NCBI GenBank assembly: GCA_048938445.1
Contig: JBHLME010000079.1
Coordinates: 1-21,369 of the forward strand
Source of the DNA: Promethearchaeota archaeon
GTDB taxonomy: Archaea > Asgardarchaeota > Lokiarchaeia > Sigyniarchaeales > SOKP01
Reading direction: 5' to 3'
Length of the DNA: 21,369 bases
Under the pieces are notes generated by a model. That model was not told the origin of the DNA. It worked only from the letters and a program-made list of their open reading frames with translations, and did no database searches. Numbering within the stretch: the first letter of the stretch is position 1; each line of letters starts with the position of its first letter. Positions 892 through 21,369 of the stretch are shown piece after piece. The translations under genes were made by a program, and so were the position numbers.

Positions 892-904
892 GAGGAATGA
901 AAGA

Positions 905-4372: not shown

Positions 4373-4376
4373 TTAT

Positions 4377-5399
4377 ATGGGAAATATACAAGGAGATAAT
4401 AAAAAAATTGAACAATCCATGAGAGATGTAGCGCGTGATTTGCTTAAAAATAAAGAAGTAGATTTAATTATTGGTTATGCAAAGGGATCTGTCCCATTAA
4501 GCTCTTCTCCAGCTTTCATTACTAAAGAAGAGGACGTGGATAATTTAATTTGGAATAATTTATGCTATGTCAACTTGGCTAGATATATTGTTCCTCCAAT
4601 TACAGAATTCATTAATAATGAGAATGTACCACTGAAGGTAGGAATAGTATCAAAAGGATGTGTTGGTAGGAGTTTAATTCATCTAGCTAAAGAAAATCAA
4701 GTTAATCTTGAAAACATTAAAATAATAGGCATTCCATGTAATGGAATCATTAATAGAAAAAGAATCGAAAAAGAACTAGGAGAAAAAGAAATTTTTGATA
4801 TATCTGTTATTAACAATGAAATTATTGTTAAAGGAGCAGATTTTGAAAATAAATACTCATTTGATGAATATTTAAATGAACTATGTAAGACATGTAAAGT
4901 TAAATCACCACCAATGACATCACCTATGTCTGATGTTATCGCGGGAGAATCTATGGAATGCTCACAAGTTGATGATGATTTTTCTGACCTATCTCAATAT
5001 GAATCAAAAACTCCTGAAGAAAGATGGCAAGTCATTGAGGATTTATTAAGCAGTTGTACGAGATGTTATGCATGTAGAGAAGCTTGTCCCATGTGCTATT
5101 GTAATCTGTGTTTTGTAGATCAGAATAAACCGATTTGGTTTGGAAAAACAACAGAAATATCAGATATCATTTCATTCCATTTGGTTAGAGCAATGCACAT
5201 GGCAGGTCGCTGTGTTGCTTGTGGTGCATGTAGTAGTGTGTGCCCGATGGGAATTGATTTGAAATTAATCACGAGAAAATTGGAAAAAATCGTGAAAGAA
5301 AGATTTAACTTTACTTCTGGCTTGAATCCTGATATAATGCCCCCAATGATGACTCAAAAAATGAATGATTCAGAAGATTTCATGTTAGAAGAACATTAA
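4377..5399 (+). CDS. flxC: FlxC-like (FdhB-related) 4Fe-4S dicluster protein
   Basis: CTRCYACREACPMCYCNLC and HLVRAMHMAGRCVACGACSSVCP motifs; position between mvhD and an AsrA-like gene. Start set to ATG 4377 after GGTGA (track gives TTG 4356). Confidence 0.8.
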   Translation: MGNIQGDNKKIEQSMRDVARDLLKNKEVDLIIGYAKGSVPLSSSPAFITKEEDVDNLIWNNLCYVNLARYIVPPITEFINNENVPLKVGIVSKGCVGRSLIHLAKENQVNLENIKIIGIPCNGIINRKRIEKELGEKEIFDISVINNEIIVKGADFENKYSFDEYLNELCKTCKVKSPPMTSPMSDVIAGESMECSQVDDDFSDLSQYESKTPEERWQVIEDLLSSCTRCYACREACPMCYCNLCFVDQNKPIWFGKTTEISDIISFHLVRAMHMAGRCVACGACSSVCPMGIDLKLITRKLEKIVKERFNFTSGLNPDIMPPMMTQKMNDSEDFMLEEH

Positions 5400-5415
5400 T
5401 ATGGTGATAGAATAA

Positions 5416-6486
5416 ATGACTGAAAAAGTTTTAAAAAAACAGGATGTAGAAAAATTACATAAAGATTTATCACGTTATTATAATTTTTTTGCACCAACAA
5501 TGGAAAATGGTAATATAGTATTTAAAAAAATTACCGATCCTAAAGATATTTTTCTGGATTTTTTAAACTCTAAAGTTCCTCCAAAAGAAATACTCTTTCC
5601 AAAAATGGAAACATTATTTACTTATAAAATTAACGGAAAGGACATTGAAATCGAACCAGTAAAAAATTTAGATGAGAAAAATTTAATTTTCGGAGTGCGC
5701 CCTTGCGATGCTTATAGTTTCACTCTATTAGAAAATTTCTTTGGATATGGGAATTATAAAGATGATATATTTTTAGAAAAAAAGAAGAACACTATCATTA
5801 TTGGAATGGGTTGTAATCATCCAAGACAAACCTGTTTCTGCACATCTTTAGATTATGGTGGACATCCTCATAGGAAAGAAGATGTTGATATTTTTCTCAC
5901 GGATTTAGGTGATAAATATCTTGTTTGTCCAATCAGTGATACAGGAAGGGCTATCATTGACAAGTTAGCATGGTTACCTGATGCGAATAAAAAAGATTTA
6001 GCTGAAGCAGAAGACTTATTTAAAACAGTTGAAGCTTTAATGGCGCCAAAACTTGATCTTGAAGATATAGCTGAAATCCTAGAACCAAACTTTGAACATC
6101 CCCTTTGGAAGGAAATCAGTGAAAATTGTATAGGTTGCGGAACTTGTGCTTTCTTATGTCCTACATGCACCTGTTTTGATGTAGTTGATGAAAATGATCA
6201 TTATAATAACCGTGGTAAGCGAATTAGACTTTGGGACACCTGTCAGTTTTGCATTTATACACGTCATACAAGTGGACATAATCCTCGCGATTCAAAAATT
6301 GAAAGATGTAGAAATAGAATTTTGCATAAATTTAGTTATTATCCAAAAAATTATGGAATGCTTGGATGTGTTGGATGTGGTCGATGTATTCAGTTATGCC
6401 CAGTTAATAATGACCTTAGGGAAATTATCGATAAAATAAATAAAATTAAGAACAATGAGAAGGAGGCAAAAGTTATTGCAGCTTAG
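5416..6486 (+). CDS. flxB: FlxB-like (AsrA/HydB family) 4Fe-4S protein
   Basis: PPKEILFP, GVRPCD, CFCTS, CIGCGTCAFLCPTCTCF, RxWDTC, HKF and CVGCGRCIQLCP. Confidence 0.85.
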   Translation: MTEKVLKKQDVEKLHKDLSRYYNFFAPTMENGNIVFKKITDPKDIFLDFLNSKVPPKEILFPKMETLFTYKINGKDIEIEPVKNLDEKNLIFGVRPCDAYSFTLLENFFGYGNYKDDIFLEKKKNTIIIGMGCNHPRQTCFCTSLDYGGHPHRKEDVDIFLTDLGDKYLVCPISDTGRAIIDKLAWLPDANKKDLAEAEDLFKTVEALMAPKLDLEDIAEILEPNFEHPLWKEISENCIGCGTCAFLCPTCTCFDVVDENDHYNNRGKRIRLWDTCQFCIYTRHTSGHNPRDSKIERCRNRILHKFSYYPKNYGMLGCVGCGRCIQLCPVNNDLREIIDKINKIKNNEKEAKVIAA

Positions 6487-7318
6487 TGCTTATATTCCTT
6501 ATTTAACATCTATAAAATCCATAGTTAGTGAAAATGGAGTTAATGATATTAAAACATTTGAATTAGTGTTTAAGAATAAAGAAGATGAAGAAAAATTTGA
6601 TTACATTCCAGGACAATTTGCTGAAATAAGCATGATAGGAAAAGGAGAATGCCCTATAGGAATTGCTTCCTCTCCTACTGAAAAAGGATCTATCAAATTC
6701 ACTATAAAGAAAATGGGAACGGTTACCACGGCAATTCATAATGCTGAAATTGGAGACGTTGTAGGTGTGAGAGGACCATTAGGAAATGGGTGGCCCATTG
6801 AAGATTTAAAAGGTAAGAACATTATCGTGATAGGTGGAGGATTTGCCTTTTCTACATTACGGTCTCTCGTGGAATACATGATAACTGATGATAATAGAAA
6901 TGATTTTAAAGAAATCACGGTAATTTATGGAAATAGAAACTGTTCAGAAATCCTCTATCAAGAGGATTTAATGAGATGGGAAAAAAGAGAAGATGTTGAC
7001 GTAGCACTTACAATTGACTGCGCTGAGGAAGGTTGGGACGGAAAAGTGGGTTTTGTTGCCCCTATAGTAGAAGCCGTGAGTCCATCACCAGATAATGCTA
7101 TAGCAATAGTCTGTGGTCCCCCTATAATGATCAGGACTACTGAAGCAGTATTAGAAAAATTGAACTTCAAACCGGACCAAATTTTAGAATCTTTAGAAAA
7201 TCGGATGAAATGCGGAATTGGCAAGTGTGGTAGGTGTAATATAGGAGAAAAATTCGTATGCGTGGATGGTCCTGTGTTTTCTAAAGAAGAATTAAATAAA
7301 ATGCCAAAAGAGTATTAA
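6476..7318 (+). CDS. flxA: FlxA-like (AsrB/HydG/PyrK family) FAD/NAD(P)-binding [2Fe-2S] oxidoreductase
   Basis: PGQF, RGPLGNG, GGGF, YGNR, CGPPIM and ENRMKCGIGKCGRC..CVDGPVF. In-frame TTG at 6476 lies 9 nt after AGGAGG (track start 6455). Confidence 0.88.
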   Translation: MQLSAYIPYLTSIKSIVSENGVNDIKTFELVFKNKEDEEKFDYIPGQFAEISMIGKGECPIGIASSPTEKGSIKFTIKKMGTVTTAIHNAEIGDVVGVRGPLGNGWPIEDLKGKNIIVIGGGFAFSTLRSLVEYMITDDNRNDFKEITVIYGNRNCSEILYQEDLMRWEKREDVDVALTIDCAEEGWDGKVGFVAPIVEAVSPSPDNAIAIVCGPPIMIRTTEAVLEKLNFKPDQILESLENRMKCGIGKCGRCNIGEKFVCVDGPVFSKEELNKMPKEY

Positions 7319-7339
7319 AAAGTAAGAGGGAATGTAAAG

Positions 7340-8464
7340 ATGAGTAAATCAAAAGTAGTTGATGAAGTTCTTCCTAAATCCTTTGAAGATTTAATAAAAG
7401 AAGTACATGATAAGGGAATATGTGGAGAATGTGGAGGGTGCGTGAGTTTTTGTTCCGCTGCTGAACTGAAGGCAATAGAGATGTCAGAATCTGGACCTCC
7501 TAAATATAGTAATAAGGATAATTGTCTTCATTGTGGACTATGTTACTTGGTATGTCCTCAAACATACGTGTTAAATGAGGAGTTGAATGACCGGTTTAAA
7601 TATAAAATATCGATTGGCAATCAGAAAAAAATATCATCGAGTCAAGCAACTTCCGATGAAATCCTAAAAAAAGCTACAGATGGTGGTGTGGTAACTGCAA
7701 TTTTAACCTATCTTTTAGACAAAAATTATATTCAAGGAGCTCTCGTGTGTAAAGAAAAAGGTCCATTTAATAGAGTTCCCTTTTTTGCTACTACGAGAGA
7801 TGATCTAATAGAGTCTGCTGGTTCTCATTTTGACTTATCTAAACAAGTAAGTGGCTTAGAACATTATGACACGTTCATACCAACCATCACGAAATTGAAA
7901 AAAGTCGTAGGGAAGGACATGATGAATATTGCTGTGGTTGGAACACCTTGTCAAATCCATTCGATACGAAAAATGCAGGAATTGAGCATACTTCCCGCAC
8001 ATGTTGTTAAATATACTTTAGGATTGTTTTGCAACTTTAACTTTTCTTTTGGAGAAGATGCACGCAAAAAAATGGAAGATAAATATGGCTTCTCTTTTGA
8101 TGACGTCGAAAAAATGAATATTAAAGAATCCTTAACTTTAGAATTAAAAAATCAAGAAACAATCCTAATTGATTTTGATGATTTAAATGATATTGCTCGA
8201 CACGCATGCTTTGCTTGTAGAGATTTTTCCAATGTATATGCAGATATCTCCTTTGGCGGATTAGGTTCCCGAGAAAAGTATACTACGACAGTAATTAGAA
8301 CTGATGTGGGTGAAGAAATTTATAATAATGCGCTAAAAGAAGGTTATATTCGAGAACCTTCGGAATTAAACACTTCGGTAAAAAAATCAGAGATGTTGGC
8401 AAAAATCATAAGTTTTGGTAAAAGAAAATTTGAGCGATATAAAAAATCTTTAAGTTATAGATAA
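7340..8464 (+). CDS. frhB: FrhB/FpoF-family coenzyme F420-interacting flavoprotein with N-terminal ferredoxin domain
   Basis: CGECGGCVSFC, CLHCGLCYLVCP, DGGVVTAIL, VGTPCQI, LGLFC, CFACRDF..YADISFG, TTVIRT. Confidence 0.85.
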   Translation: MSKSKVVDEVLPKSFEDLIKEVHDKGICGECGGCVSFCSAAELKAIEMSESGPPKYSNKDNCLHCGLCYLVCPQTYVLNEELNDRFKYKISIGNQKKISSSQATSDEILKKATDGGVVTAILTYLLDKNYIQGALVCKEKGPFNRVPFFATTRDDLIESAGSHFDLSKQVSGLEHYDTFIPTITKLKKVVGKDMMNIAVVGTPCQIHSIRKMQELSILPAHVVKYTLGLFCNFNFSFGEDARKKMEDKYGFSFDDVEKMNIKESLTLELKNQETILIDFDDLNDIARHACFACRDFSNVYADISFGGLGSREKYTTTVIRTDVGEEIYNNALKEGYIREPSELNTSVKKSEMLAKIISFGKRKFERYKKSLSYR

Positions 8465-8469
8465 GGAAA

Positions 8470-8490
8470 ATTTCTTACTCTTATTTTTTT
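8470..8490 (+). terminator. Candidate archaeal oligo-T terminator of operon 1
   Basis: Pyrimidine run TTTCTTACTCTTATTTTTTT just after the frhB-like stop. Confidence 0.4.
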
Positions 8491-8619
8491 ATAATCTCTA
8501 ATCCTTTAACTTGATAATATACTTATATATTATGAATATTAAAGTTCTAATATTAATTAACTAATATATTGCATAATATTTTATTAAGAATGATCATCTG
8601 AATTTTTATTTTCATTATT

Positions 8620-8633
8620 TTTACAATTGTAAA
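8620..8633. promoter_or_regulatory. Perfect 14-bp palindrome, candidate operator
   Basis: TTTACAATTGTAAA is its own reverse complement and lies in the spacer upstream of operon 2. The AT-rich background weakens its significance. Confidence 0.3.
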
Positions 8634-8895
8634 TGATCAAGTAAAGACATAATGATCGAATATTATCGCCCTTTCCTGACAGTTTTTTCTATTTCAATAA
8701 TATTTGAATGAAATATTATCGGAATCAAAAATTTTTTAGCTGAAAATTTCTGAAATTGATCATTGCTTTTAAATATGATGGTGTAATTCATAATTATTGG
8801 GAAAATTTTTACAAAAAAGTAATTCAATAAAAAGTGCAAAATTTGCGACTTTTAATTATTCAATTAGAATTTTAGCATAGAGGAGATAATGTAAA

Positions 8896-10179
8896 ATGGA
8901 GGATTTGATAAAAGATTCTGATTTGGATTTAAATTTAATTAGTGAGATCTCTAAAAATGAAGAATTAAAGTCAATTTTAAGTTGTTTTGAATGTGGTATG
9001 TGTACATCGAGCTGTCCTATTGGGGAACACTTTTTATTAAATCCCCATCAAATCACTCGATTAGCAGCTTTTGGTGCAAAAAAACAGGTTCTGGATGAAC
9101 AAATTCTTCGATTTTGCTTAACTTGTAGGACCTGCCAGGAATATTGTCCGCAGGACGTGAATTTCATTGAATTCATAAGATTAGCAAGAAGTCTTCTAAT
9201 AAACGAGGGAATTAAATATGATGAAACACATGATGGTATCTTAACTCTAATCTCTGAAATACAAGCAAAAAGTCATTTAGGCTTTGAAATTGCATCCGAT
9301 ATTATTCCAGATGGTTATGAAATATTAAAAAAAGGAAAAATTGCATATTTTTATGGTTGTTTACCACTATTGGATATGCTTTTTTGTAATTACAGTATAA
9401 ACCTCTTAGAAATTGCCCAAAATGGCATGAAAATTTTAAGCGAAGTTCTCGAATATCCACCAATACTTATAGATAATGTAAAATGTTGCGGTCACGATGC
9501 TCTTTGGAAGGGTCATCATGAAACTTTCAGGAAACTAGCTGAACATAACGTGAGTGAAATTAACAAGCGAGGTATAGAGACTATTGTAACAACTTGTGCC
9601 GAATGTTACCGCACATTAAAAATAGATTATCCGAAATACATTAAAAACGTTAATTTTAATGTTATTCATCTTTCTGAGCTAATTGCTGGTAAGATTACCA
9701 ACAACCAATTAACTTTTTCAGAAACTCAAGATTTAAAAGTCACATATCACGATCCTTGCAGATTAGGAAGACACATGAAAGTATACTCCCCTCCGAGAAT
9801 AATACTTAACCATATGAAAAATAATGGTGTTACATTTACCGAAATGGAAAGATCCCATGAAAATTCCCCTTGTTGCGGAGTCAGTTGTTTTATTAATTGT
9901 AACGATCTTTCCAAGGCATTACAAGCAGATAGATTATCTGAAGCTCAAGATGTAGCAAAATTATTAGTTACTACTTGTCCAAAATGTCAGATTCATTATA
10001 GTTGTATGATAAACGAAAAAAAAGAAAAACCTTCAGATGAAATAACTTTGAAAATTTCTGATTTAACAAATTTGATTGCACAAATGGGAGTAGTAAAAAT
10101 AAAACGAAAAGAGGAAAAAGAAAAGAACCTGAAGAAAAAAGAGAAGGAAAAAAAAATTGTCATGCCTATTAATGCATGA
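8896..10179 (+). CDS. hdrD: HdrD-like (HdrC + CCG domain) Fe-S oxidoreductase
   Basis: CFECGMCTSSCP and CLTCRTCQEYCP, then two CCG domains (YFYGC..CCGH..TTCAEC; YHDPC..CCGV..TTCPKC). GAGGAG upstream; Lys/Glu-rich tail. Confidence 0.85.
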   Translation: MEDLIKDSDLDLNLISEISKNEELKSILSCFECGMCTSSCPIGEHFLLNPHQITRLAAFGAKKQVLDEQILRFCLTCRTCQEYCPQDVNFIEFIRLARSLLINEGIKYDETHDGILTLISEIQAKSHLGFEIASDIIPDGYEILKKGKIAYFYGCLPLLDMLFCNYSINLLEIAQNGMKILSEVLEYPPILIDNVKCCGHDALWKGHHETFRKLAEHNVSEINKRGIETIVTTCAECYRTLKIDYPKYIKNVNFNVIHLSELIAGKITNNQLTFSETQDLKVTYHDPCRLGRHMKVYSPPRIILNHMKNNGVTFTEMERSHENSPCCGVSCFINCNDLSKALQADRLSEAQDVAKLLVTTCPKCQIHYSCMINEKKEKPSDEITLKISDLTNLIAQMGVVKIKRKEEKEKNLKKKEKEKKIVMPINA

Positions 10180-10292
10180 AGGAGGAATGATCATAAAATT
10201 AAATACTAAAAATAGAAAAGCTCTCGTTAGAAACAAGAAAATAAATATTATTCTAACGAATTGAAATTTACCAGAAATTAAAAATTTATTTT

Positions 10293-10315
10293 GTTGCTAA
10301 ACCAAGTTTAGCAAC
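10293..10315. promoter_or_regulatory. Perfect 10-bp inverted repeat with 3-nt spacer (operator or RNA hairpin)
   Basis: GTTGCTAAAC-CAA-GTTTAGCAAC, 40 nt upstream of hdrA 10356. The repeat is seen directly; its function is inferred. Confidence 0.55.
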
Positions 10316-10355
10316 TGGAAGAAAATAAATAAGAATTAATAAAGTGTAAAAAAAA

Positions 10356-12086
10356 ATGGTGCCTAAAAAGGAAAAAAAGGAGATTATTAGAGTTGGAGTA
10401 TTTGTTTGTCATTGTGGAACAAATATAGGTGGATTATTAGATTGTAAGGCTCTTGCAGAATATGCAAGAACTTTACCAAATGTTGCATATAGCGAAGACA
10501 ATTTATATACCTGTGCAGAGACAGGTTTGACGAGTATTAAAAAAGCGATTAAGGACTATGATTTAAATCGAATAGTTGTAGCTTCTTGTACACCTAGAAC
10601 CCATGAACCTTTATTTAGAGAATGCATTTCAGAAGCAGGGCTTAATCCATATCTCTTTAATTTGGTTAACATTCGAGAACAATGTTCTTGGGTTCACATA
10701 GGAGATCCTGATGAAGCTTTTGATAAAGCTTTAGATTTAATTTCGATGGGTGTAGCTAAGGCTATAAAACTAGAACCTCTAAAAATGATTACGATTGATA
10801 TTAACAACGCTGCTTTAATAATCGGTGGAGGTGTTTCTGGAATGACTGCAGCCCTTAATTTGAATAATCAAGGTTTTCAAACATATTTAGTTGAAAAGGA
10901 AGAAATTTTGGGGGGTAGATTGAATACACTATATCAATTATTTCCTCATAATATTAAAGCTTCAGATTTTGTTGAAGAAATCAAATCTAAAGTGAATAAT
11001 GCTAAAAAGATTACAGTATTTACAGAGGCTCAAGTTATGAATGTTAATGGATTCGTAGGAAATTATCAAATAGAAATTCAACAGAATGGTAGGATAATTG
11101 ATTTAACGGTTGGTGCAATAATAGTAGCTATTGGTGCGTCACTTCTTGATCCCAAAAATCTCTATAAATACGATGGTGTAAAAATAATTACACAATATGA
11201 ACTTGAATCTAAATTGAAAGAGAAAAAGATGCTTCCGAACAATATCGTGATGATACAGTGCGCAGGTTCCCGGAATGAAGATATACCTTATTGTGCAAAT
11301 GTATGTTGCATGACTGCGTTAAAAAATGCCTTGATTATTAAAGAAAAGAATCCAAGTGCCAATATAGTAATATTATTCCGAGATTTATATACACCTGGAA
11401 AATATGAAGAATATTATAGAAGAGCAAGAGAAAATGACATTCTCTTCATTAGATACAATGAAAATAGATTGCCAAAAGTTAATAAGAAAAAAATTTTAGC
11501 ATTTAACGAGTACATGGGAGACAACCTAACTGTTCCTTATGATTTATTAGTATTATCAACGCCTTTAATAGCTAATAACGACAATAAGGAACTTGCTCAG
11601 GTTTTGAAAGTTCCATTAGAAGCCAATAATTTCTTTTTAGAAGCTCACGTTAAGTTACAACCTATTGACTTTTCAACAGATGGAATTTTTATATGTGGAT
11701 CTGCAAAATGGCCTGTGGATGTTTCAGAATCTATAACACAAGGTTATGCTGCAGCCTCTAGGGCTAGTACAATAATATCAAAAGATGAAATGAAAATTTC
11801 TGGTGCAATCGCGGAAATCGACGAGGAACAATGTATTGGTTGTGGTGATTGCCGAGATCTCTGTGTATATAATGCTATCGATATTGTTGAAAATGCTATT
11901 GAATTTAAAGCAATTCGGGATGCAATAGTTCCATCTATGAGTTTTCTCAGGTATAAGTCAAAAGTAAATCCCGCAATGTGTAAAGGATGTGGTGTATGCG
12001 TGGGAGTTTGTCCAGTTGGAGCTTTATCCTTGAAAAATTTTACAAATGAACAATTAGATGTTATGCTTGAATCATACTTGCCATAA
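10356..12086 (+). CDS. hdrA: Short single-FAD HdrA-like protein lacking the inserted ferredoxin domain
   Basis: GVFVCHCG, ASCTPRTHE, REQCSWVH, IIGGGVSG, QCAGSR..YCANVCC, EAHVKLQP and C-terminal CIGCGDCRDLC/CKGCGVCVGVCP. Colinear with the second half of the long HdrAs. Confidence 0.9.
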   Translation: MVPKKEKKEIIRVGVFVCHCGTNIGGLLDCKALAEYARTLPNVAYSEDNLYTCAETGLTSIKKAIKDYDLNRIVVASCTPRTHEPLFRECISEAGLNPYLFNLVNIREQCSWVHIGDPDEAFDKALDLISMGVAKAIKLEPLKMITIDINNAALIIGGGVSGMTAALNLNNQGFQTYLVEKEEILGGRLNTLYQLFPHNIKASDFVEEIKSKVNNAKKITVFTEAQVMNVNGFVGNYQIEIQQNGRIIDLTVGAIIVAIGASLLDPKNLYKYDGVKIITQYELESKLKEKKMLPNNIVMIQCAGSRNEDIPYCANVCCMTALKNALIIKEKNPSANIVILFRDLYTPGKYEEYYRRARENDILFIRYNENRLPKVNKKKILAFNEYMGDNLTVPYDLLVLSTPLIANNDNKELAQVLKVPLEANNFFLEAHVKLQPIDFSTDGIFICGSAKWPVDVSESITQGYAAASRASTIISKDEMKISGAIAEIDEEQCIGCGDCRDLCVYNAIDIVENAIEFKAIRDAIVPSMSFLRYKSKVNPAMCKGCGVCVGVCPVGALSLKNFTNEQLDVMLESYLP

Positions 12087-12523
12087 TGAGGTGTATTAAG
12101 ATAGAACAAGTTCAAGAGGTTTATAAACCCAAAATTATTACCTTTTTGTGCAACTGGTGTGGTTATGCTGGTGCAGATTTTGCAGGAGTAAGCCGTTATC
12201 AATATCCTCCATCCATAAGAGTAATAAGAGTATTATGCTCCGGAAGAATTCAACCTGCTTTAATACTTAATGCTTTTAATCGTGGAAGTGATGGTGTCTT
12301 GATATGTGGATGTCATATAGGGGATTGTCATTATATTTCAGGTAATGAAAAAGCAGAAGAGCGAGTTAAAAAAACCAAGAAATTGCTAGAACTCTTAAGA
12401 ATTGATCCAAAAAGGCTTAGATTGGAATGGATTTCTGCATCAGAGGGAATAAAATTTGCTGAAGTTGTAAGAAAGTTTACTAATCAGCTCATACAAATGG
12501 GACCGCTTGAGAATGAAATCTAG
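12086..12523 (+). CDS. mvhD: MvhD [2Fe-2S] subunit
   Basis: FLCNWCGYAGAD, RVLCSGRI, GCHIGDCHY, WISASEG. TAATG overlap with the upstream hdrA. Confidence 0.93.
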   Translation: MRCIKIEQVQEVYKPKIITFLCNWCGYAGADFAGVSRYQYPPSIRVIRVLCSGRIQPALILNAFNRGSDGVLICGCHIGDCHYISGNEKAEERVKKTKKLLELLRIDPKRLRLEWISASEGIKFAEVVRKFTNQLIQMGPLENEI

Positions 12524-12537
12524 GATGTGATAATCTT

Positions 12538-15500
12538 ATGATACAAAGTTCAACTTATGAAAATCAAGTTTTAGTAATTGGTGGAGGTGTGGCTGGAATA
12601 TCTGCCGCTTTAGATCTTGCAGATCAAGGTCATATTGTTTACTTAGTAGAAAAATCCCCTTCAATTGGTGGTAAAATGGCTCAATTAGACAAAACGTTTC
12701 CAACATTAGATTGTTCAATATGTATCTTAGCTCCAAAAATGGTAGAATGCGCACGCCACCCTCGAATAAAGCTTTTAACATATTCAGAAGTTAAAAGTGT
12801 TAATCCAATTTATGATGGATCTGCTTTTAAAGTAAAAATACTACTTAAGCCGCGATATATAGATCAGACAAAATGTACCTCCTGTGGAACTTGCGCACAA
12901 AAATGTCCTTATAAAAAATTTCCTTCTGAATATGAACAAGGGTTGAGCAAAAGAGGTGCAGCTTACATACCTTTTCTTCAAGCCGTTCCAGCTGTTTATC
13001 TTGTTGATGAGGAAAACTGTACTTATTTTAAAAATGGTACTTGTAAGGTTTGTGAAAAATTTTGTCCGACTCATGCAGTAGATTTCGAGCAAAAACCACG
13101 AGAGATTGAAATTGAGGTAGCCTCCGTTATAGTTGCTACTGGTTTTGACCTCATGGATGTTAGCTCATTAAAAAGATATGGATATGGAAAATATCCCAAT
13201 GTAGTCGTTTCATTGGAGTATGAACGCATAATGTGCGCATCAGGACCAAGTAAGGGAGAAATAATTCGCCCTTTTGATAATAAACATCCTCATAAAATAG
13301 GATTGATTCTATGTGTAGGATCACGAAATATTGGTTTAAAACCTTATTGTTCTAAATTTTGTTGCATGTATGCTACAAAGGAGGCAATAATGACTATGGA
13401 ACACCATCCAGATGCGGAAATTTTGGTATTTTATAATGACCTGCGGACAATAGGGAAGAATCATGAGGAGTTTATTGAAAGAGCCAAATTAGATTATAAT
13501 GTTAAGTATGTTAAAGGATTACCCAATAAAATATATGAGCATCCAGAAACTAAGGATTTAATAATAAGACATACGGATTTTGAGACAGGAAAAGTTAGAT
13601 TTGACACTGTTGATATGGTGGTTTTATTTCCCGCAGTTATACCTAGCAAAGGAGCAAAGGAATTAAACAAGATACTAAGTGTAGAAATGGATGAATATGG
13701 TTTCATAAAACCATATAATTTAGTAAATAATATTGAAACAAGTGTTCCTGGGATTTATTCATGTGGTTGTGCCCATGGACCAGAAGATATATCTACTTCT
13801 GTTGCTGAGGCAAGCGGAGCAGCAAGTAGAGCGTCAAGCAGAACTTCATTGCTTACGGTAGAATCTATTGAAGAAAAGATTGTTGAAAAAGAGGTGTTAT
13901 TAGGAGATCCCCCTCGAATTGGGGTATTTATTTGTCATTGTGGTTCAAATATTGCGGGTTTTGTAGATGTAGAAAAAATAGCTAATGAAATTGAATCCGT
14001 TCCAAATGTGGTTTATGTAGAAAGGAACTTGTATACTTGTTCTGAAGAATCTCAAAATAGTATTCAAGCCGCAATTGAAAAATATGATTTGAATAGAGTA
14101 ATAATTGCAGCATGTACTCCAAGAACACACCTCCCCCTCTTTCAAGCAACCTGTCATAAAGTAGGTCTAAATACTTACCTCGTTTTATTCGCAAGCATTA
14201 GAGAATTGGTTAGTTGGGTTCACATGACTGAACCTGAAAAAGCAACTCAAAAAGCAAAAGAACAAATCCTTATGACTATTGCAAAATCCCGGCTTGTAGA
14301 GCCATTACAAGATATAGAAGTTAAAGTATTACCCGCTTCATTGGTTATTGGAGGAGGGATCGCAGGAATGACCGCTTCATTAGCTATAGCAAAAAAAGGA
14401 TTTAAAGTATATCTAGTTGAGCAGGAAAGTATTTTGGGTGGATTCACTAGATACTTGCACCAGATTAATCCAGATGGCCTAACACCTGATCAAGTGTTAA
14501 GTCCAATCATTCAAGCAATAAAAACTACCACTAATATTGAAGTTCTTACATCTTCAAGAGTTAAGGCAGTGAGTGGTTCAATAGGGGATTTTCTAGTTAT
14601 TGTAGAAAATAATGGAATAGAGCAAGAAATTGAAGTGGGCACCATTATCGTTGCCGTGGGAGGCCAAGAATTTAAACCACATGGATATTTCCATTATAAG
14701 AAGGAAAAGAATGTCTACACTAATTTGGAATTCGAAAATTTAATTGCAAATGATCAATTACATGAAGAAGAAAAAATAATATTCATTCAATGTGTTGGAT
14801 CTCGGGAAATCGATGGTAGAACTTATTGTTCACTGACTTGCTGCGCTGAATCAATTAAAAATGCATTAATTACTAAAAAGCGCCATCCAAATTCTCAAAT
14901 TTTCATTTTATACCGAGATATTAGAGTTACTTATGAACAAGAAATTGAATATAAAAAGGCTAGAGAATGCGGGATTAATTTCATTCAATATAACATGAAG
15001 TATCCTCCGCTCTTAGGAAAAAATAATGGTAGGTTTATATTACGAGTCTTTGATGTTTTAACGAGAATGACATTCGAATTATCTTTAAGTAAGGTTGTCC
15101 TCGCAACACCCCTAATAGCTTGGGAACAAAATAAGAAGTTATCAGAAATGCTAAAAGTACCCTTGGATAAAAATGGCTTCTTTTTTGAAGCCCATCCTAA
15201 ATTAAGACCAGTTGATTTCGCGACTGATGGAATATTTGTATGTGGAACTGCTCAAAGTCCAAAAAATATTAATGAATCTATAAGCCAAGCTTTGGGGGCA
15301 GCATCTCGAGCATTAATTCCCTTAATGAATAGTAAAGCATCAGTTGAAGGTGCTACATCAAGTCTTCCTGAATTCAATAAAGAATTATGCACAGGATGTG
15401 AAGTCTGTATCGCTGTATGTCCTTATAAGGCGATTAACAAGAATGAAATGGATGAAATTGAAATAAATCAAGTACTTTGTAAAGGTTGTGGAGTATGTGG

Positions 15501-15588
15501 AGCTACTTGTACTAATCAAGCTCTTGTAATAAAACATTTTACAGATCAGCAAATTCTTTCTCAAATTGATTCATGTATTCTAAGATAG
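12538..15588 (+). CDS. hdrA: Large HdrA-like flavoprotein with two FAD-binding HdrA modules
   Basis: VIGGGVAG, LDKTFPTLDCSICI, EYERIMCASGP, YCSKFCC, FICHCG, CTPRTH, second VIGGGIAG, YCSLTCC, EAHPKLRPVDF and two C-terminal CxxCxxCxxxC motifs. Confidence 0.93.
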   Translation: MIQSSTYENQVLVIGGGVAGISAALDLADQGHIVYLVEKSPSIGGKMAQLDKTFPTLDCSICILAPKMVECARHPRIKLLTYSEVKSVNPIYDGSAFKVKILLKPRYIDQTKCTSCGTCAQKCPYKKFPSEYEQGLSKRGAAYIPFLQAVPAVYLVDEENCTYFKNGTCKVCEKFCPTHAVDFEQKPREIEIEVASVIVATGFDLMDVSSLKRYGYGKYPNVVVSLEYERIMCASGPSKGEIIRPFDNKHPHKIGLILCVGSRNIGLKPYCSKFCCMYATKEAIMTMEHHPDAEILVFYNDLRTIGKNHEEFIERAKLDYNVKYVKGLPNKIYEHPETKDLIIRHTDFETGKVRFDTVDMVVLFPAVIPSKGAKELNKILSVEMDEYGFIKPYNLVNNIETSVPGIYSCGCAHGPEDISTSVAEASGAASRASSRTSLLTVESIEEKIVEKEVLLGDPPRIGVFICHCGSNIAGFVDVEKIANEIESVPNVVYVERNLYTCSEESQNSIQAAIEKYDLNRVIIAACTPRTHLPLFQATCHKVGLNTYLVLFASIRELVSWVHMTEPEKATQKAKEQILMTIAKSRLVEPLQDIEVKVLPASLVIGGGIAGMTASLAIAKKGFKVYLVEQESILGGFTRYLHQINPDGLTPDQVLSPIIQAIKTTTNIEVLTSSRVKAVSGSIGDFLVIVENNGIEQEIEVGTIIVAVGGQEFKPHGYFHYKKEKNVYTNLEFENLIANDQLHEEEKIIFIQCVGSREIDGRTYCSLTCCAESIKNALITKKRHPNSQIFILYRDIRVTYEQEIEYKKARECGINFIQYNMKYPPLLGKNNGRFILRVFDVLTRMTFELSLSKVVLATPLIAWEQNKKLSEMLKVPLDKNGFFFEAHPKLRPVDFATDGIFVCGTAQSPKNINESISQALGAASRALIPLMNSKASVEGATSSLPEFNKELCTGCEVCIAVCPYKAINKNEMDEIEINQVLCKGCGVCGATCTNQALVIKHFTDQQILSQIDSCILR

Positions 15589-15661: not shown

Positions 15662-18148
15662 TCAATATTTTTGACTTTCTCGAGTCATCAACCAAGATGA
15701 AAATAATTGACTTATTTGAAGTAAAAATGCTCTATCATCGAGGTTACCACTTTTTAATCCTTCTAATAGGTCTGCAATTGTATTAGTATTGTTCGAATGA
15801 AAGATTTTTAAATTATTAGATTCAATTATGCCTTCTAATATAGTTAAAAAGTCCTTCCATTCAAAAATTTGGCTTTTTTTAATTTCAAGAGGTTTTTGGG
15901 CAAATTCTAATTTTTTAACTTTAAATAATTGATTCTTGATGTGAAATTCTTTCACGTAAACATATATTTTCTCACAGAAGCTATCAAAATTGTCTACATC
16001 ATAATCAATCCCTGGAGTACTTGAAAGGCCAATCGAAGCAAGATCTTGCCAAGTCACGTCATTTCCCCTTAATGGCAAGATAGGAACGTTATATTTGCGA
16101 GATAGTTCAAGCTCATGAGAACAATCTATGGAGTTAAATACAGATTTTTGGGTGCCTAAGAAAAATACATAATCACTAATGGGAACGTTCTTATCCATAA
16201 ATTTATCAATATTCCCAGATAGATCTTGTTCGCACAATAATACATCATATATTTCTGGTTTAGATTCAAGATAATCGCCTAAATCTGCCAATAGGTAACT
16301 TTCATAATCAATAACGGCGTGCGAGATAAAAATTGACATACATGAACGTTGTTTAAAGTAATCTCGAAGAGTATCTAAATCACGTTGAATCAGAGTTTTT
16401 TCATCATCACCAAGTGGATTATCATCCAATTTGAGTTCGGTAAGTGTCTTGAGAGGCCACAGGACATATGGAAGAGAGGTGAATTTGTTTTTTGTTAGAG
16501 TCAACTGTTTTAATTTCATATGACCCATACTTTTAGGAAGATTCAATAAATGATTTTCATCTAAGTTAAGATATTCTAATTTTTCGAGCTTGGCAATAGA
16601 AGAGGGTATGCTTGTAAGGTTATTGGATCGAAGATTTAATATATTAAGAGATTGCAAATTACCTATTTCTTCTGGTAGGGCTTGTAAGGTATTTTTATTT
16701 AAGTTTAATTGCTCTAATTTTGCTAGATTACCAAATTGGGAAGGTAATAAAGATAAGTTGTTCTCTTCCAGATTTAATCTTTTCAATCCTTTTAAACCAC
16801 CAATTTCTTGCGGTAGAGAGTTAATATTATTTTTTTGTAAATTAAGTTCTTCCAAGGTTTCTAATTTACTGATGCTTTTCGGGAGAGTTTTGAGATTTGT
16901 TTTCGTTATTGTCAAGATTCTCATGGTGGTTAACTCACCGAAAGATAGAGGAAGCGATTCTAAAGGGGCATTCTCAATGTGAAAATTAGTAGCTTTTTTA
17001 ATGCCCATTAATGTGTCTGGGAAGGCTTCGAGCTTACTATCTCGAATGCTTAAATGAGACAACGATTCTAAATTTCCAAAAGATTGGGGTAAAGAAGTAA
17101 AATTATTTCTATCTAAACTAAGGTTGAATAATTTCTTTAAATTTCCAAGCGATTCAGGTAAAAAATTCAATTGATTTTCCCCTAAATCTAAAACGTTCAA
17201 TTCTGTTAAATTACCTATAGATTGAGGAATCTCTTTTAGGGAGTTGCGATTAAGGCGTAAATCTTTTAAAGAAGATAGATTTCCAATAGCATTTGGTAAA
17301 GATTCGAGCTGATTTTGGGCTAAATCTAATTTCTTTAACTTAATGAAACTATAAATAGATTCTGGAACTGCTATTAATCCAATGTTTTTTGCGTTCATAA
17401 TCTCTATCTCCGTGAGATCTCCAATTGAAACGGGTAATTTTAGTATTGAATTTTCTGACAAGTCAAGTTCAACGATTCCTTTTAGGTTCCCAAATGATGT
17501 TGGAAGATTTTTTATTCGATTTTTATTGAGCAAGAGTTTTTTTAGCTTGGATAAATTAGTGAGATCTTCATGGAAATCAGAAATTCTATTATTACTGACA
17601 TCTAATTCAATTAAATCTGCACATTCGGCAAGTACTGGAGATAAATTTTCGATTTTATTATCTTGTAGATGTAAAATCTTAAGCTTTTTAAGATTTAATA
17701 TCCAATTGGGAATTGTTCTTAAGTCATTATTATCAAGGATTAGCTTTTCAAGGTTGATAAAATTCGAAAAATACATTGGAAGTTCTTTTAAGAGATTTAC
17801 TCGCAGGGTGAGTTCTTTTAAAGCCGTACAGTTGGCAAGACTATCAGGTAAATCAACAATCTGATTCTGGGAAACATTTAGAGTTTCTAAATTGGTTAAT
17901 TCACCGATGGAATGAGGTAATGTTTTAAAATCATTTCCATATAAAAAGAGAGCCTTGATTTTTTTACATTTTCCAATAGATTCAGGTAATTCCGTTAAAT
18001 GAGCTCTCGTCACTTCAATACGAGATACGTTATTATTTTCAACTATAAAGCAACGCGAATTCCAACTCGATCCCATGAGTTGTTCTAATTCCTCGAGAAA
18101 TTGCACTTCTTCTAAGGGAAGCAAGTGACCCATGTATTCCTTACTCAT
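15662..18148 (-). CDS. LRR-TIR protein: ~23-24 LRRs, TIR domain with intact catalytic-Glu motif, C-terminal helical domain
   Basis: 23-aa LxxLxLxxNxLxxLPxxIGxLxx repeats. TIR motifs SIFISHA, SDYVFFLGT, SIDCSHEL and PILPL. Start set to ATG 18148, 6 nt after AAGGAGGTG (track 18166). No transmembrane segment or signal peptide seen. Confidence 0.88.
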   Translation of the reverse strand: MSKEYMGHLLPLEEVQFLEELEQLMGSSWNSRCFIVENNNVSRIEVTRAHLTELPESIGKCKKIKALFLYGNDFKTLPHSIGELTNLETLNVSQNQIVDLPDSLANCTALKELTLRVNLLKELPMYFSNFINLEKLILDNNDLRTIPNWILNLKKLKILHLQDNKIENLSPVLAECADLIELDVSNNRISDFHEDLTNLSKLKKLLLNKNRIKNLPTSFGNLKGIVELDLSENSILKLPVSIGDLTEIEIMNAKNIGLIAVPESIYSFIKLKKLDLAQNQLESLPNAIGNLSSLKDLRLNRNSLKEIPQSIGNLTELNVLDLGENQLNFLPESLGNLKKLFNLSLDRNNFTSLPQSFGNLESLSHLSIRDSKLEAFPDTLMGIKKATNFHIENAPLESLPLSFGELTTMRILTITKTNLKTLPKSISKLETLEELNLQKNNINSLPQEIGGLKGLKRLNLEENNLSLLPSQFGNLAKLEQLNLNKNTLQALPEEIGNLQSLNILNLRSNNLTSIPSSIAKLEKLEYLNLDENHLLNLPKSMGHMKLKQLTLTKNKFTSLPYVLWPLKTLTELKLDDNPLGDDEKTLIQRDLDTLRDYFKQRSCMSIFISHAVIDYESYLLADLGDYLESKPEIYDVLLCEQDLSGNIDKFMDKNVPISDYVFFLGTQKSVFNSIDCSHELELSRKYNVPILPLRGNDVTWQDLASIGLSSTPGIDYDVDNFDSFCEKIYVYVKEFHIKNQLFKVKKLEFAQKPLEIKKSQIFEWKDFLTILEGIIESNNLKIFHSNNTNTIADLLEGLKSGNLDDRAFLLQISQLFSSWLMTRESQKY

Positions 18149-20414
18149 ATCTAGCACCTCCTTCATTAGAATTTTTTAGAGCGGAATAAAGAGAAAAAAC
18201 TTGCATTAAAAATAGACCATCAGCCCCAATCTTTGCGTTTTGCGTTTGATTTCGAGCAATTAATAAAGCACTCTTGTTATTTTCAAAAAATTCTTTTAAT
18301 TGAGGCGAATGAATCATCCGCATCATTTCATTTTTAAATAATGTAAAACTTGTTGTACCTTCATCTTCGACCATACCCTTCAATATGAGATCTTTCTTAT
18401 TTTTAAATACATCATGAGAACGTTTGAATTGCAGGATATAATTATATACCCCTTGACAAAATCCATCAAAATCGTCAGGTTTAAATTCATGTCCTAACTC
18501 TCGGCTAAGCCCTACGACATCCATTTCGGCCCATCCTATATCAAGTCCCTTTAATGGAACGATATCAATGCCTTTTTCTCTAGCATTCGTGATTATCATA
18601 ATAGATTTCTCGGATTGTAGGGATCGAGATGTTGCTAAAAACAAAATTAAATCCGTTGAGTCTAGATTTTCATTCTCATCAGGTAAAATACCAAAAATTT
18701 CGCTTTGCATTTTTAAAAATTTCATTAAATCTTGTATTCGATGGGATTCGGCATCCTCTTCATCATATAAGATCATTACTGAAATGGAGGCTCTTTGACG
18801 ACAATAATCCAATATTGCAGGAGCATCCATTAATGCTATTTCTTTTTCATCAGGTGAGAATGGATTACCATCCAATTTTAAGGTTTTGAGTGAAGCCATT
18901 GGCCATATAAAATAGGGTAACGAGGAGAGATGGTTATTGGAAAGTTGAAGGGTAGTTAATTTCAGATTGATCAAGCTTTCGGGTAATTTAGTCAATTGAT
19001 TATTTCCCAACCAAAGAGTATTTAAAGAAGTTAATGACCCAATAGATTCCGGTAATTCGGCTATAAAATTAGAATTTAATAGAAACCACTGTATTGAGGT
19101 TAATCCACCAATGCATTCGGGTATCATCGTGATTTTATTAAAAGATAAGTCTAATTGCTTTAAAGAAGAAAGGTTACAAAGAGAATTAGGGATAGAGATT
19201 ATTTCATTCACTCTTAGATTTAGTGAATCTAAATTTGAAAAAGTTCCAATTGAATTTGGAATTTTGATTAAATGATTATTTTCAAAAGAGGCTTTTGTTA
19301 GATTTTTGAGTTGTCCAAATTTTTCAGGTAAAGTCTCAAGTTCATTTTTTTCACAATCAAGTTCTTTAAGACTTAAAAGGTCGCAAAAAGAATCAGGCAG
19401 TCTTTCTAACTTGTTTTCTTTCAAGTTTAAATATTCTAATGAGGTCAATGTTCCAAACGAAGGGGGCAGAGCAATAAGTTGGTTATTTGTCAAGACAATT
19501 TCTTTTAAAGATTTTAAGCCTCCCAAAGAATCGGGTAATTTTTCCAATTGGTTCCATTGAAGGTTAAAATTTTTTAGGGAAGAGAGGTTTCCAAAGCTTG
19601 AGGGTAACTTTTCAATTGCACAAGTTTGAGCGTCTAAAGACACTAAATTATTAAGATTACCGATGTTTTCGGGTAAAGTTTTGATCTTGTTCCAAGAAAC
19701 AGAAAAAGATTTTAGGTTTTGAAGGTTTCCTATGCTTTCAGGTAATTCTTCGATCTCGTTTTGCTGTAATTGAAGCACTTGTAACTTACCTAAGGATCCT
19801 ATCGTGCTTGGTAATGTTTTAAGATGGCATTTTATTATAGTAAGATTTTTTAAATTGTCCAAAGCCCCTAGTGAATCGGGTAGTGAAGCAATTTCTTCAT
19901 TTTCAAGACAAAGCCCTATAATTCTATTTTTCATGCTTATATACCCAAAATTAGCCATGGCCGGAACCTGATCACTATCTTGGCTAAAAGTTTCCTTAAT
20001 TTGCTTTCGTTGTTGGATCTGCTGTTTTATTTGCTGGGTCATTTGTTTAGCAAGTTGTTTAGCTCTATCACCATCAAGTTCCATCATTTGCTTCATTTGA
20101 ATGACTGTTGGATGATTTTCTCCTAGAGTAGATATGATGTTATCAAGTTGTGCTTTCATTTGAGCTTTATACTCTGGTGTCGCCATTGAAAGATAGTAAT
20201 TTTCATAGTATTGCTCCATTTCTTCCATTGACATTTGTTCCAGTTGTTTCCATTGAGCATCTTGAGCCGTTTGAGCACTATTAGCCTGGTTCAATGATTT
20301 ATCTCTATTCTCAATGCAAGGAATGGATTTTCCAAGCTTTTTTTCTAATTCTTCAAGAAAACTAGCTTCTTTATTGATTAAAGAATTGCCATTATAATCT
20401 TTTAATTCTTCCAA
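18141..20414 (-). CDS. LRR protein with degenerate TIR: N-terminal Gln/Met-rich insert, ~15-16 LRRs, pseudo-TIR, C-terminal helical domain
   Basis: Same 23-aa LRR consensus. The C-terminal part aligns by eye to the neighbour's TIR (TDLILFLAT..IVPLKG..W...GLS...DDFDGFC). TTG start; stop overlaps the neighbour's start (ATGAGTAA). Confidence 0.85.
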   Translation of the reverse strand: MEELKDYNGNSLINKEASFLEELEKKLGKSIPCIENRDKSLNQANSAQTAQDAQWKQLEQMSMEEMEQYYENYYLSMATPEYKAQMKAQLDNIISTLGENHPTVIQMKQMMELDGDRAKQLAKQMTQQIKQQIQQRKQIKETFSQDSDQVPAMANFGYISMKNRIIGLCLENEEIASLPDSLGALDNLKNLTIIKCHLKTLPSTIGSLGKLQVLQLQQNEIEELPESIGNLQNLKSFSVSWNKIKTLPENIGNLNNLVSLDAQTCAIEKLPSSFGNLSSLKNFNLQWNQLEKLPDSLGGLKSLKEIVLTNNQLIALPPSFGTLTSLEYLNLKENKLERLPDSFCDLLSLKELDCEKNELETLPEKFGQLKNLTKASFENNHLIKIPNSIGTFSNLDSLNLRVNEIISIPNSLCNLSSLKQLDLSFNKITMIPECIGGLTSIQWFLLNSNFIAELPESIGSLTSLNTLWLGNNQLTKLPESLINLKLTTLQLSNNHLSSLPYFIWPMASLKTLKLDGNPFSPDEKEIALMDAPAILDYCRQRASISVMILYDEEDAESHRIQDLMKFLKMQSEIFGILPDENENLDSTDLILFLATSRSLQSEKSIMIITNAREKGIDIVPLKGLDIGWAEMDVVGLSRELGHEFKPDDFDGFCQGVYNYILQFKRSHDVFKNKKDLILKGMVEDEGTTSFTLFKNEMMRMIHSPQLKEFFENNKSALLIARNQTQNAKIGADGLFLMQVFSLYSALKNSNEGGARYE

Positions 20415-21135
20415 GTGATAATCTCAATCCTCTTTTTTCTTCTATAATTAGAATTTTATTTCAATATTTAAAATAAATTAAATTTCAATCTCATTTTCAA
20501 ACTTTCATTTTTAAGTGAATATTAAATAAAATTCATTTTTTTTAAATATGAAAATTTCTATAATAGTGATCTAATAATGTCGTTTAGAAATTTTTATATA
20601 TTTGTTTTTTTCAGATAATAACAAAAATAAAGGTAAAATTACGAAATAATTTAAAACTAATGGAGATAGTTTCTTTCCATTTGAAACCTTTATTGTTTAA
20701 ATGGTATGATAAGATAAACATTTCTAACAAGAACAATTCCAAACCATTTCCCGAATCTCAGATTGAGATCATAATAAATTTTAGTAGTAATTATTTTATT
20801 AAAATTATTGATTATCCAATTATATCTCCAATATATTTATTATTTTCTATAACAATATTTTGGTAAATCATACTTTTTTATCGTCAGAAATCAACAATAA
20901 TTTTTTCATTTAAAATGATCCATTTTTAACACAATTTTAAGCGACGTGAGCTCAAAATTTAAAAAAAAATGTGTCAAATTCTTTCTTTAGATTTTTAAAA
21001 AAAAAAAATCCATAATCTGTATAGATTTTTATTTATAAATCTATTGCTTAAATGGGTGTTTATTATATAGGAATTGAAAAAATTTATAAATACAAAATTT
21101 ATATTTGTTATAATTAAATTGTTTAAAAATGTATC

Positions 21136-21160
21136 AAAAAAAAACAATTTATATAGATAA
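21136..21160 (+). promoter_or_regulatory. Candidate BRE/TATA promoter of the actin gene
   Basis: A-rich run followed by TTTATATA (21148-21155), about 70 nt upstream of the ATG. Several similar AT-rich motifs nearby make the assignment uncertain. Confidence 0.3.
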
Positions 21161-21226
21161 ACTTTCTTATAATATTTACACTGAAAAAATAATTTACAAA
21201 AAAATATAAAAAAAAGGCTGAGTAAA

Positions 21227-21369
21227 ATGGCAGAAGAAGAAAGCTTTTTAAATGCTAAAGCACTTGTAGTAGATAACGGTACAGGTATCAGCAAGAATGG
21301 ATTCGCTGGTGAGGATCAACCACGATCTGTATTTCCAACACTCATCGGATATCCAAAATACGAAAGTAT
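21227..21369 (+). CDS. Actin (Asgard/Lokiactin-like), 5' end truncated by window end
   Basis: Reads [47 protein letters not shown], matching the actin phosphate-1 region (eukaryotic ALVxDNGSGxxKAGFAGDDAPRAVFPSIVG) with an acidic N-terminus. Unlike MreB, FtsA or ParM. Not in the ORF track. Confidence 0.95.

Follow-up and report, generated by a model that had tools for sequence, protein, structure and literature searches.

The immune systems of bacteria, plants and animals alike rely on TIR domains, whose wiring in Asgard archaea is almost unknown. The enzyme-type TIRs, such as those of SARM1, the plant TIR-NB-LRR receptors (TNLs), AbTir and SPARTA, are inactive singly and cleave NAD+ once their sensors drive ordered TIR–TIR assemblies, and in the plant pair RPS4/RRS1 two adjacent paralogous receptor genes are inherited together, one with a signalling-competent TIR and one without. 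Here we describe a gene pair on a contig of a Promethearchaeota archaeon, a Loki-type member of the Asgard archaea (JBHLME010000079.1, our contig G000:C218), which we analyzed whole and call the window (21,369 nt). Its minus strand carries two co-oriented, overlapping paralogs with leucine-rich repeats (LRRs), the upstream gene A (757 amino acids) and the downstream gene B (834 amino acids as the longest open reading frame, ORF). B appears to keep a competent enzyme-type TIR and A a degenerate one, and the best reading of this layout is a sensor/executor receptor pair without any nucleoside triphosphatase (NTPase) switch. We put the probability that A and B form a heterodimeric LRR–TIR receptor of this kind with an NAD+-cleaving output at about one half. 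The pair is built from known modules in a new variant arrangement.

The C-terminal domain of B is, judged by its predicted structure, a TIR. Its AlphaFold2 model had a mean per-residue confidence (pLDDT) of 87, with a disordered stretch past the TIR and then a four-helix tail, and the best Foldseek matches of the model were AbTir, PdTIR, SPARTA TIR-APAZ, BtpA and SARM1; the RPS4 and RRS1 TIRs were among the structural matches of both the A and the B models. A search of 1.84 billion proteins placed 278 representatives in the family of B (E up to 0.001). Of 23 members in an alignment, 11 matched the Pfam family TIR_2 (PF13676) and one matched PF01582 (E 0.0096), and a precomputed PF13676 label was present on 4 of the 14 database proteins closest to B. 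In the window's own genome, paralog L003 (47% identity) scored 37.8 bits and paralog L004 28.8 bits against the TIR_2 cut-off of 28, the paralogs that pass this cut-off being 42–47% identical. Searches with other parts of the proteins, or with profiles, yielded little: the C-terminal parts alone matched no TIR in Pfam, just SAPI, NARF and WH_Egal below threshold; against the PDB, a profile of alignment A1 was swamped by LRR matches and P0107 returned chance LSm4 matches alone; phmmer of the B C terminus against PDB sequences gave no more than a marginal match, located in the tail, to a 'pathogenicity island protein' (E 0.046); and an ESM Atlas search with the B tail (residues 745–834) gave no usable match.

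The motifs of this domain are those of an enzyme-type TIR. Among 20 B-type and singleton TIRs, the FISHAV, CE.DL.GNID and DC.HEL columns were invariant or nearly so, and F9, S11, H12, C41, E42, G47, N48, D50, C78 and E81 were invariant. E81 is Glu685 of B (834-amino-acid ORF numbering), which the B model places in the helix that follows strand C and precedes strand D; we mapped it by position in the predicted structure, because no residue-by-residue sequence alignment to a solved NAD+-cleaving enzyme (NADase) was found. The TIR survey by Toshchakov and Neuwald reports that a conserved glutamate located there is critical to the NADase activity of TIRs (PMC7075850). Our best reading is that B keeps a competent enzyme-type TIR and is a predicted NADase.

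The C-terminal domain of A adopted the same alpha/beta fold as that of B in its AlphaFold2 model (pLDDT 79). Foldseek matched it to SPARTA, a B. cereus TIR, SARM1 and the RRS1/RPS4 TIRs, intermixed with receiver and SIS folds at similar E-values, and we describe the predicted fold as TIR/flavodoxin-like, an assignment less specific than that for B; the sequence of A itself matched no Pfam TIR model, even at E 10. Three losses distinguish A. VMILYD stands in place of the family's FISHAV; 11 residues are deleted with respect to QDLSGNIDKFM of B, at ILPDE/NEN (18666–18689), in what we take to be the BB-loop region; and Ile607 occupies the glutamate column (within 18582–18608). All 15 A orthologs lack FISHAV and the glutamate and carry the 11-residue deletion, whereas the CEQDL-GNID and DCxHE motifs are kept in 17 of 17 B-type sequences and F[IV]SHAV in all 16 that reach the strand-A region (L023 begins past it).

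A is not decaying, because its ORF is intact in 15 of 15 copies and its pseudo-TIR is conserved. The pseudo-TIR is the best-conserved part of A, 50–59% identical to those of other genera versus 32–40% for the A LRRs, and between two genomes of genus g1 (the window's and G004) it is 76% identical, with a nonsynonymous divergence (dN) of 0.14. In the closest ortholog pair, the ratio of dN to synonymous divergence (dS) was 0.08–0.29 in every domain with computable dS, which is indicative only, given a dS of 0.8–1.9, and excludes the A pseudo-TIR, whose dS was saturated; beyond this pair dN/dS is uninformative because dS is saturated. As judged from sequence, A carries a conserved pseudo-TIR that is predicted to be unable to cleave NAD+. 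The first-pass annotation of this DNA had assigned a TIR to both proteins, which stands for B (by its model, its fold matches and the paralogs that pass TIR_2) and for A extends to a TIR/flavodoxin-like fold whose motifs are lost; the live/dead asymmetry of the pair had been missed.

To survey the co-occurrence of the two genes, we scanned 400 genomes of the phylum, counting family matches at E up to 1e-18 and B orthologs at E up to 1e-70. Family matches were found in 67 of the 400 genomes, all within four families of one class. B orthologs occurred in 16 genomes, 15 of which have an A ortholog immediately upstream of B in the same orientation; the remaining one, G028, has a contig that begins within B. 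The 15 pair-bearing genomes fall in four genera: g1 (2 of 5 genomes scanned), g11 (11 of 54), g4 (1 of 4) and g20 (1 of 2). When the ORFs of the 16 loci were clustered, four unrelated neighbourhoods emerged: an Hdr/Mvh-like redox cluster in g1; WD40, isochorismatase, hexapeptide transferase, ThiF and Roadblock genes in g11; helix-turn-helix and histidine-kinase genes in g4; and unknown genes with a DDE transposase in g20. A and B were the sole real genes common to them, two further shared ORF clusters being shadow frames inside the LRR genes. A-then-B is a genuine two-gene unit, inherited together, and the earlier suggestion of an operonic pair of start/stop-overlapping paralogs was sound.

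The junction between the two genes is similarly constrained in its form. The longest ORFs of A and B overlap by 26 nt; with B starting at the ATG at 18148–18146, where the ESM Atlas record of B also begins, the overlap is 8 nt, ATGAGTAA, and a Shine-Dalgarno-like GGAGGTG (18155–18161) lies in the last codons of A, 6 nt upstream of that ATG. The TTG start of A sits at the position equivalent to the ATG of its G004 ortholog. Across the 15 pairs, the overlap is 4 nt (ATGA or GTGA) in 10, 8 nt in 2 (the window included) and 1 nt in 1, and in the remaining 2 B starts 2 nt past the A stop; GGAGG is found 5–10 nt upstream of the B start, within the last A codons, in 13 of the 15. This geometry looks like translational coupling. 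Thirteen sequencing runs contain the stretch or part of it, all recorded as metagenomes of sediment, soil or unspecified origin and presumed to be DNA, with no RNA run listed. A sigma-70 scan returned 37 promoter-like sites (28.9 +/- 5.6 expected) and 2 terminator-like ones (2.5 expected), counts that are uninformative for an archaeon because the consensus is bacterial.

A tree of the TIR plus tail (50 rows: 8 A and 8 B sequences from the 15 pairs, and 34 other members) placed A in one clade (support 100) and B in another (support 99, with the database protein P0006 inside), joined at 88, and the inner order of genera was identical in the two clades. This pattern is consistent with a single ancient tandem duplication after which the A active site decayed, with the caveat that the branch joining A and B is not strongly supported and that A sits on a long stem. 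The wider family is patchy within genera and varies from 1 to 13 members per holding genome, with frequent tandem arrays; the window genome holds six copies of the domain, of which the four beyond A and B are singletons on other contigs. Homologs in databases are labelled just 'leucine-rich repeat domain-containing protein', under the organism labels Promethearchaeota, Lokiarchaeum or Promethearchaeum. Of 58 TIR loci in species-representative genomes, 35 are labelled Promethearchaeota, Promethearchaeia or Promethearchaeum (including strain MK-D1), 16 'uncultured archaeon', 4 have other Asgard labels and 3 have bacterial ones. The cultured Promethearchaeum syntrophicum MK-D1 has a singleton family member.

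Several further observations concern the family at large. The three loci with bacterial labels (L040, L063 and L075; Ignavibacteria, Anoxychlamydiales and Nanopelagicaceae) lie on contigs of 5.4–21.6 kb, and their TIRs are 43–71% identical to that of B; these are most likely mis-binned Asgard contigs. Other LRR–TIR tandem pairs or triplets occur at G214:C7 722721–725545, G207:C77 6956–9783, G018:C4 16531–23534, G270:C114 6126–9930, G277:C33 27046–29129 and G003:C375 1068–3753, and a tandem pair of ~733 and 564 amino acids recurs in two g11 genomes. A third, truncated B-type copy, divergent from the A–B pair, is present in L011 (G035:C20, 3844–5268 and 11134–12222, both on the minus strand), with an in-frame TAG flagged and a DDE-family transposase gene a few kb off. 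The window genome also has canonical TIR_2 proteins: a 465-amino-acid ORF at G000:C177 ~20441–21688 (L008, L086) combines WD40 repeats with a TIR_2 above the cut-off, and a second canonical TIR_2 ORF, of 473 amino acids, lies on C187.

N-terminal to the TIR-like domains, A and B share an architecture that the first-pass annotation had described correctly. Both begin with the motif YxGxxLxxxExxFLEELExxxG, and in both the solenoid ends in the cap SLPYxxWP / LKLDxNP. The LRRs keep a strict 23-residue period, of the cytosolic SHOC2/Leptospira kind, with 23 units in B (residues 70–575, probably preceded by one more at ~47) and 15 in A (residues 188–509, probably preceded by one more at ~165), in line with the earlier counts of about 24 and 16. 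Over the full length of both proteins Pfam returned LRR families alone (LRR_14 at E 3.3e-63 for B and 5.1e-43 for A), with no match to an NTPase family (NB-ARC/NACHT). A transmembrane (TM) helix was not found, the maximum 19-residue Kyte-Doolittle mean being 1.10 in B and 1.27 in A, and the linker between LRRs and TIR is charged and helical. The A orthologs also have an insert between N-cap and LRRs at the same position as in the window. The variation in LRR copy number, which the first-pass annotation had singled out for a survey, proved modest: copy number is fairly stable among orthologs, whose stop-to-stop frames span 802–860 amino acids for B and 760–796 for A (excluding L014, whose A frame, at 775 amino acids, is cut by the contig start).

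The idea that the two proteins form a heterocomplex, also raised in the first-pass annotation, gained support from structure prediction. We modelled the C-terminal parts of A and B together, each with its own 29-row alignment, and scored the interface by ipSAE. The A–B complex reached 0.77 versus 0.00 for the best control. Among solved complexes 58 of 80 attain the mark applied to this score, and among mismatched pairs 2 of 110, counts that are rough here since custom alignments were used. Three runs had at least 49% of contacts in common, with partner pLDDT of at least 69, and all confident contacts were tail to tail, between the segments given in Table 1. The model thus supports a heteromer of A and B formed through their helical tails.

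Table 1. Features of the A–B gene pair in the window (residue numbers of B refer to the 834-amino-acid ORF)
Feature	Coordinates	Strand	Description
Gene A	18141..20414	-	757 amino acids, TTG start; LRR protein with predicted pseudo-TIR and helical tail
A N-cap, residues 1-40	20295..20414	-	Motif YxGxxLxxxExxFLEELExxxG, then IPCxENRD
A-specific Q/K/M-rich insert, ~120 residues (41-160), between N-cap and LRRs	19935..20294	-	No Pfam match
A LRR solenoid	18822..19934	-	15-16 repeats of 23 residues; ends in cap LPYFIWP...LKLDGNP
A charged helical linker and pseudo-TIR, residues 532-665	18420..18821	-	Assigned from motif losses and predicted fold
A helical tail, residues 666-757	18144..18419	-	Residues 689-747 are the predicted interface with the B tail
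Gene B	15662..18166	-	834 amino acids from ATG; probable start ATG 18148-18146; LRR protein with predicted intact TIR and helical tail
B LRR solenoid	16376..18028	-	23-24 repeats of 23 residues; ends in cap LPYVLWP...LKLDDNP
B charged helical linker and TIR, residues 598-750	15917..16375	-	Assigned from three motifs, model and fold matches
B motif FISHAV, residues 613-618	16313-16330	-	TIR
B motif CEQDLSGNID, residues 645-654	16205-16234	-	TIR
B motif DCSHELEL, residues 681-688	16103-16126	-	TIR; includes Glu685
B helical tail, residues 751-834	15665..15916	-	Four helices in model; residues 768-834 are the predicted interface with the A tail

The remainder of the window is occupied largely by the redox cluster (130–15588, plus strand). 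It contains three HdrA-like flavoprotein/Fe-S genes (878–3919, 10356–12086 and 12538–15588) and three MvhD/FlpD genes (130–891, 3920–4372 and 12086–12523), together with Fe-S proteins, an NAD-binding/DHODB-type subunit, an FrhB-like gene (7340–8464) and a CCG-domain gene (8896–10179); part of the cluster also adjoins the pair in the same-genus genome G004 (L009). On the other side, within 20415–21369, a spacer of ~580 nt and 25% G+C lies upstream of A, followed by a 99-amino-acid ORF (20995–21294, minus strand) without a Pfam match.

If A and B work as a sensor/executor receptor, they would be made together, in step, from one transcript and would pair as a fixed heterodimer via their C-terminal helical tails, each partner offering a different LRR surface for binding (15–16 repeats in A, 23–24 in B). 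The B TIR would be kept off until a ligand alters the assembly, A most likely holding or gating it; A would act as a regulator or sensor and not as an enzyme, since it has neither a BB loop nor a catalytic site to contribute. A ligand on the LRRs would let the B TIRs of several heterodimers associate, switching on NAD+ cleavage, and the output would be NAD+ depletion or an ADP-ribose (ADPR)-derived signal, of which depletion is the simpler guess because no effector gene consistently accompanies the pair. Within genera the family is patchily distributed, and it is expanded in copies and tandem arrays, which makes an immune role plausible. More tentatively, we propose that the pair is an NTPase-free, two-chain LRR–TIR immune receptor of Asgard archaea in which a tail-bound pseudo-TIR partner gates an NAD+-cleaving TIR.

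A number of points weigh against this proposal, or against the receptor with NAD+-cleaving output that underlies it. The sequence of B itself matched no Pfam TIR model, even at E 10, and a narrow TIR-only profile (A4) found nothing useful in the PDB and no TIR by sequence. NADase activity, ligand-driven oligomerization and an immune role are what we infer, and tail binding is modelled. The complex model contains no TIR–TIR contact, which leaves gating of the B TIR by the pseudo-TIR purely conjectural, and, the tails being paralogous, it cannot tell A–B from B–B or A–A. In the single comparison short of full saturation, change in the LRRs is purifying and not diversifying (dN/dS about 0.10–0.12, with dS already >1.4). 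There is no defence-island context, the neighbours being redox, housekeeping or signalling genes; no effector gene is conserved beside the pair across the four neighbourhoods; and PADLOC returned 0 families for A and B at E up to 0.1. This last result agrees with the earlier statement that the pair does not match the Thoeris, CBASS, Pycsar, SPARTA or Avs architectures. The first-pass annotation, right on architecture, had overstated the immune reading. When viral contigs were scanned for the TIR, no relative turned up. In none of the four neighbourhoods does a ThsA-like gene (SIR2, Macro or SLOG) adjoin the pair, and no APAZ or Argonaute family was matched in A, B or their neighbours.

Some of these same observations would suit a non-enzymatic scaffold, in which the TIRs are interaction modules, as in TLR/MyD88, inside Asgard networks of LRR, WD40, Roadblock and GTPase proteins, with neither NAD+ chemistry nor a link to viruses. 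The WD40 protein, Roadblock/LC7 protein and ThiF beside the pair in g11, the stable synteny in 11 g11 genomes, the absence of defence context at the loci examined and the purifying selection on the LRRs all speak for such a role, and the survey cited above notes that conservation of the glutamate is not always paired with enzyme activity (PMC7075850). We nevertheless judge it unlikely, in that S11, H12, C41, E42, N48, D50, C78 and E81 are invariant in B and the singletons and are exactly those lost in A, a pattern to be expected of a catalytic site with an inactivated duplicate and less so of a docking surface; the best structural matches, moreover, are enzyme-type TIRs. A still smaller chance attaches to mere tandem paralogy, with A and B not working together and A decaying or independently neofunctionalized. 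Tandem arrays of family members are common in relatives, and the other four copies in the window genome are singletons, but 15 genomes from four genera, in which the neighbours differ, retain the A-then-B order, the overlap and the Shine-Dalgarno-like motif, every A copy is intact and its dead TIR is better conserved than the A LRRs, the A and B trees branch in parallel and the complex model passes its controls, which together make this explanation very improbable.

The pair might alternatively be a signal maker of the Thoeris type, with activated B producing a cyclic-ADPR-type or other ADPR-derived messenger that is read by a receptor encoded elsewhere. In g11 and g4 a WD40 protein and an isochorismatase-family protein adjoin the pair or another family member, and besides A and B the window genome encodes two canonical TIR_2 proteins along with four further members of the family; these observations speak for the idea. 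Using the g11 proteins as queries in the window genome, G004 and G035, we considered whether a WD40 plus isochorismatase-like module is an obligatory partner of the pair. It is not, because no isochorismatase-like gene was found in the window genome (96.5% complete), G004 (90%) or G035 (85%); WD40 matches in the window genome and G035 were weak (E 6.4e-15 or weaker) and not true orthologs, and there were none in G004. No gene is conserved beside the pair across genera, and PADLOC has no effector model that matches A or B, the rest of the genome not having been screened for SLOG, Macro or SAVED. On balance we regard a messenger read elsewhere as quite unlikely, if not so remote as mere tandem paralogy. 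As a separate observation, at G020:C54 12965–17122 (L083, L085) the WD40 and isochorismatase-like genes known from the flank of the pair in g11 lie directly downstream of a different LRR–TIR member, whose TIR is at 16514–17122 and whose stop-to-stop frame is 825 amino acids, which hints at an association that recurs without being obligatory.

Should the immune reading be true, the pair would be the first archaeal counterpart of paired immune receptors, and the sensor/helper logic of plant nucleotide-binding LRR receptor (NLR) pairs and the LRR–TIR order of Toll-like receptors would have arisen independently in the closest prokaryotic relatives of eukaryotes. The pair joins LRRs directly to an enzyme-type TIR without the ATPase switch of NLRs and adds an obligate dead-TIR partner. 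If active, it would provide a very small model for how TIR enzymes are restrained and triggered, a means of testing how general sensor/executor pairing is as a design rule, and a handle on virus–host or signalling biology in the lineage closest to eukaryotes; the singleton in cultured MK-D1 makes some bench work feasible. A full-text literature search returned no paper found to describe an Asgard or Lokiarchaeal LRR–TIR protein or pair; supplementary material (e.g., the defence-system tables of PMC11291487) might include such genes with generic TIR labels.

Among described systems, the STAND/NLR sensors (Avs, bNACHT and plant TNLs) differ from the pair in having a central P-loop NTPase domain, which A and B lack. 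Thoeris resembles it in using a prokaryotic TIR_2-type TIR with a conserved glutamate, as in B; in the pair, however, the LRR sensor is fused to the TIR, no ThsA-like gene lies beside it and there is no PADLOC match. In TIR structure the closest systems, as judged from the models, are SPARTA, plant TIRs and SARM1. The likeness to SPARTA is limited to the TIR fold, as A, B and their neighbours have no APAZ or Argonaute, and unlike SPARTA, SARM1 and AbTir, which use APAZ/Argonaute, ARM/SAM domains or a coiled coil, the pair has an LRR solenoid as its sensor, includes a dedicated pseudo-TIR partner in the unit and matches no PADLOC model.

Toll-like receptors share with A and B an arrangement of N-terminal LRRs and a C-terminal TIR, and it is in this order that the first-pass annotation's 'Toll-like' label holds; it fails in that A and B have no signal peptide or TM helix, their LRRs are of the cytosolic 23-residue type, the family matches TIR_2 (11 of 23) and not PF01582 (1 of 23), and B keeps catalytic-type motifs. 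No MyD88-like adaptor is known for the A/B pair. Toll-like receptors act in dimeric or heterodimeric form (PMC11350192). Convergence is the simplest account of the likeness.

The pair departs from plant RPS4/RRS1 (TIR heterodimer, PDB 4c6t) in several respects: it lacks both an NB-ARC/STAND NTPase and an integrated decoy domain, its domains run LRR then TIR and not TIR-NB-LRR, its genes are co-oriented and overlapping instead of head-to-head, its host is an archaeon, and the predicted contact is made via the C-terminal helical tails and not via the TIRs. Both systems nonetheless consist of linked paralogs with a live/dead split between their TIRs and LRRs as the presumed sensor, and, with a heteromer that is here a modelled one, RPS4/RRS1 appears to be the closest analogue of the A–B pair in logic.

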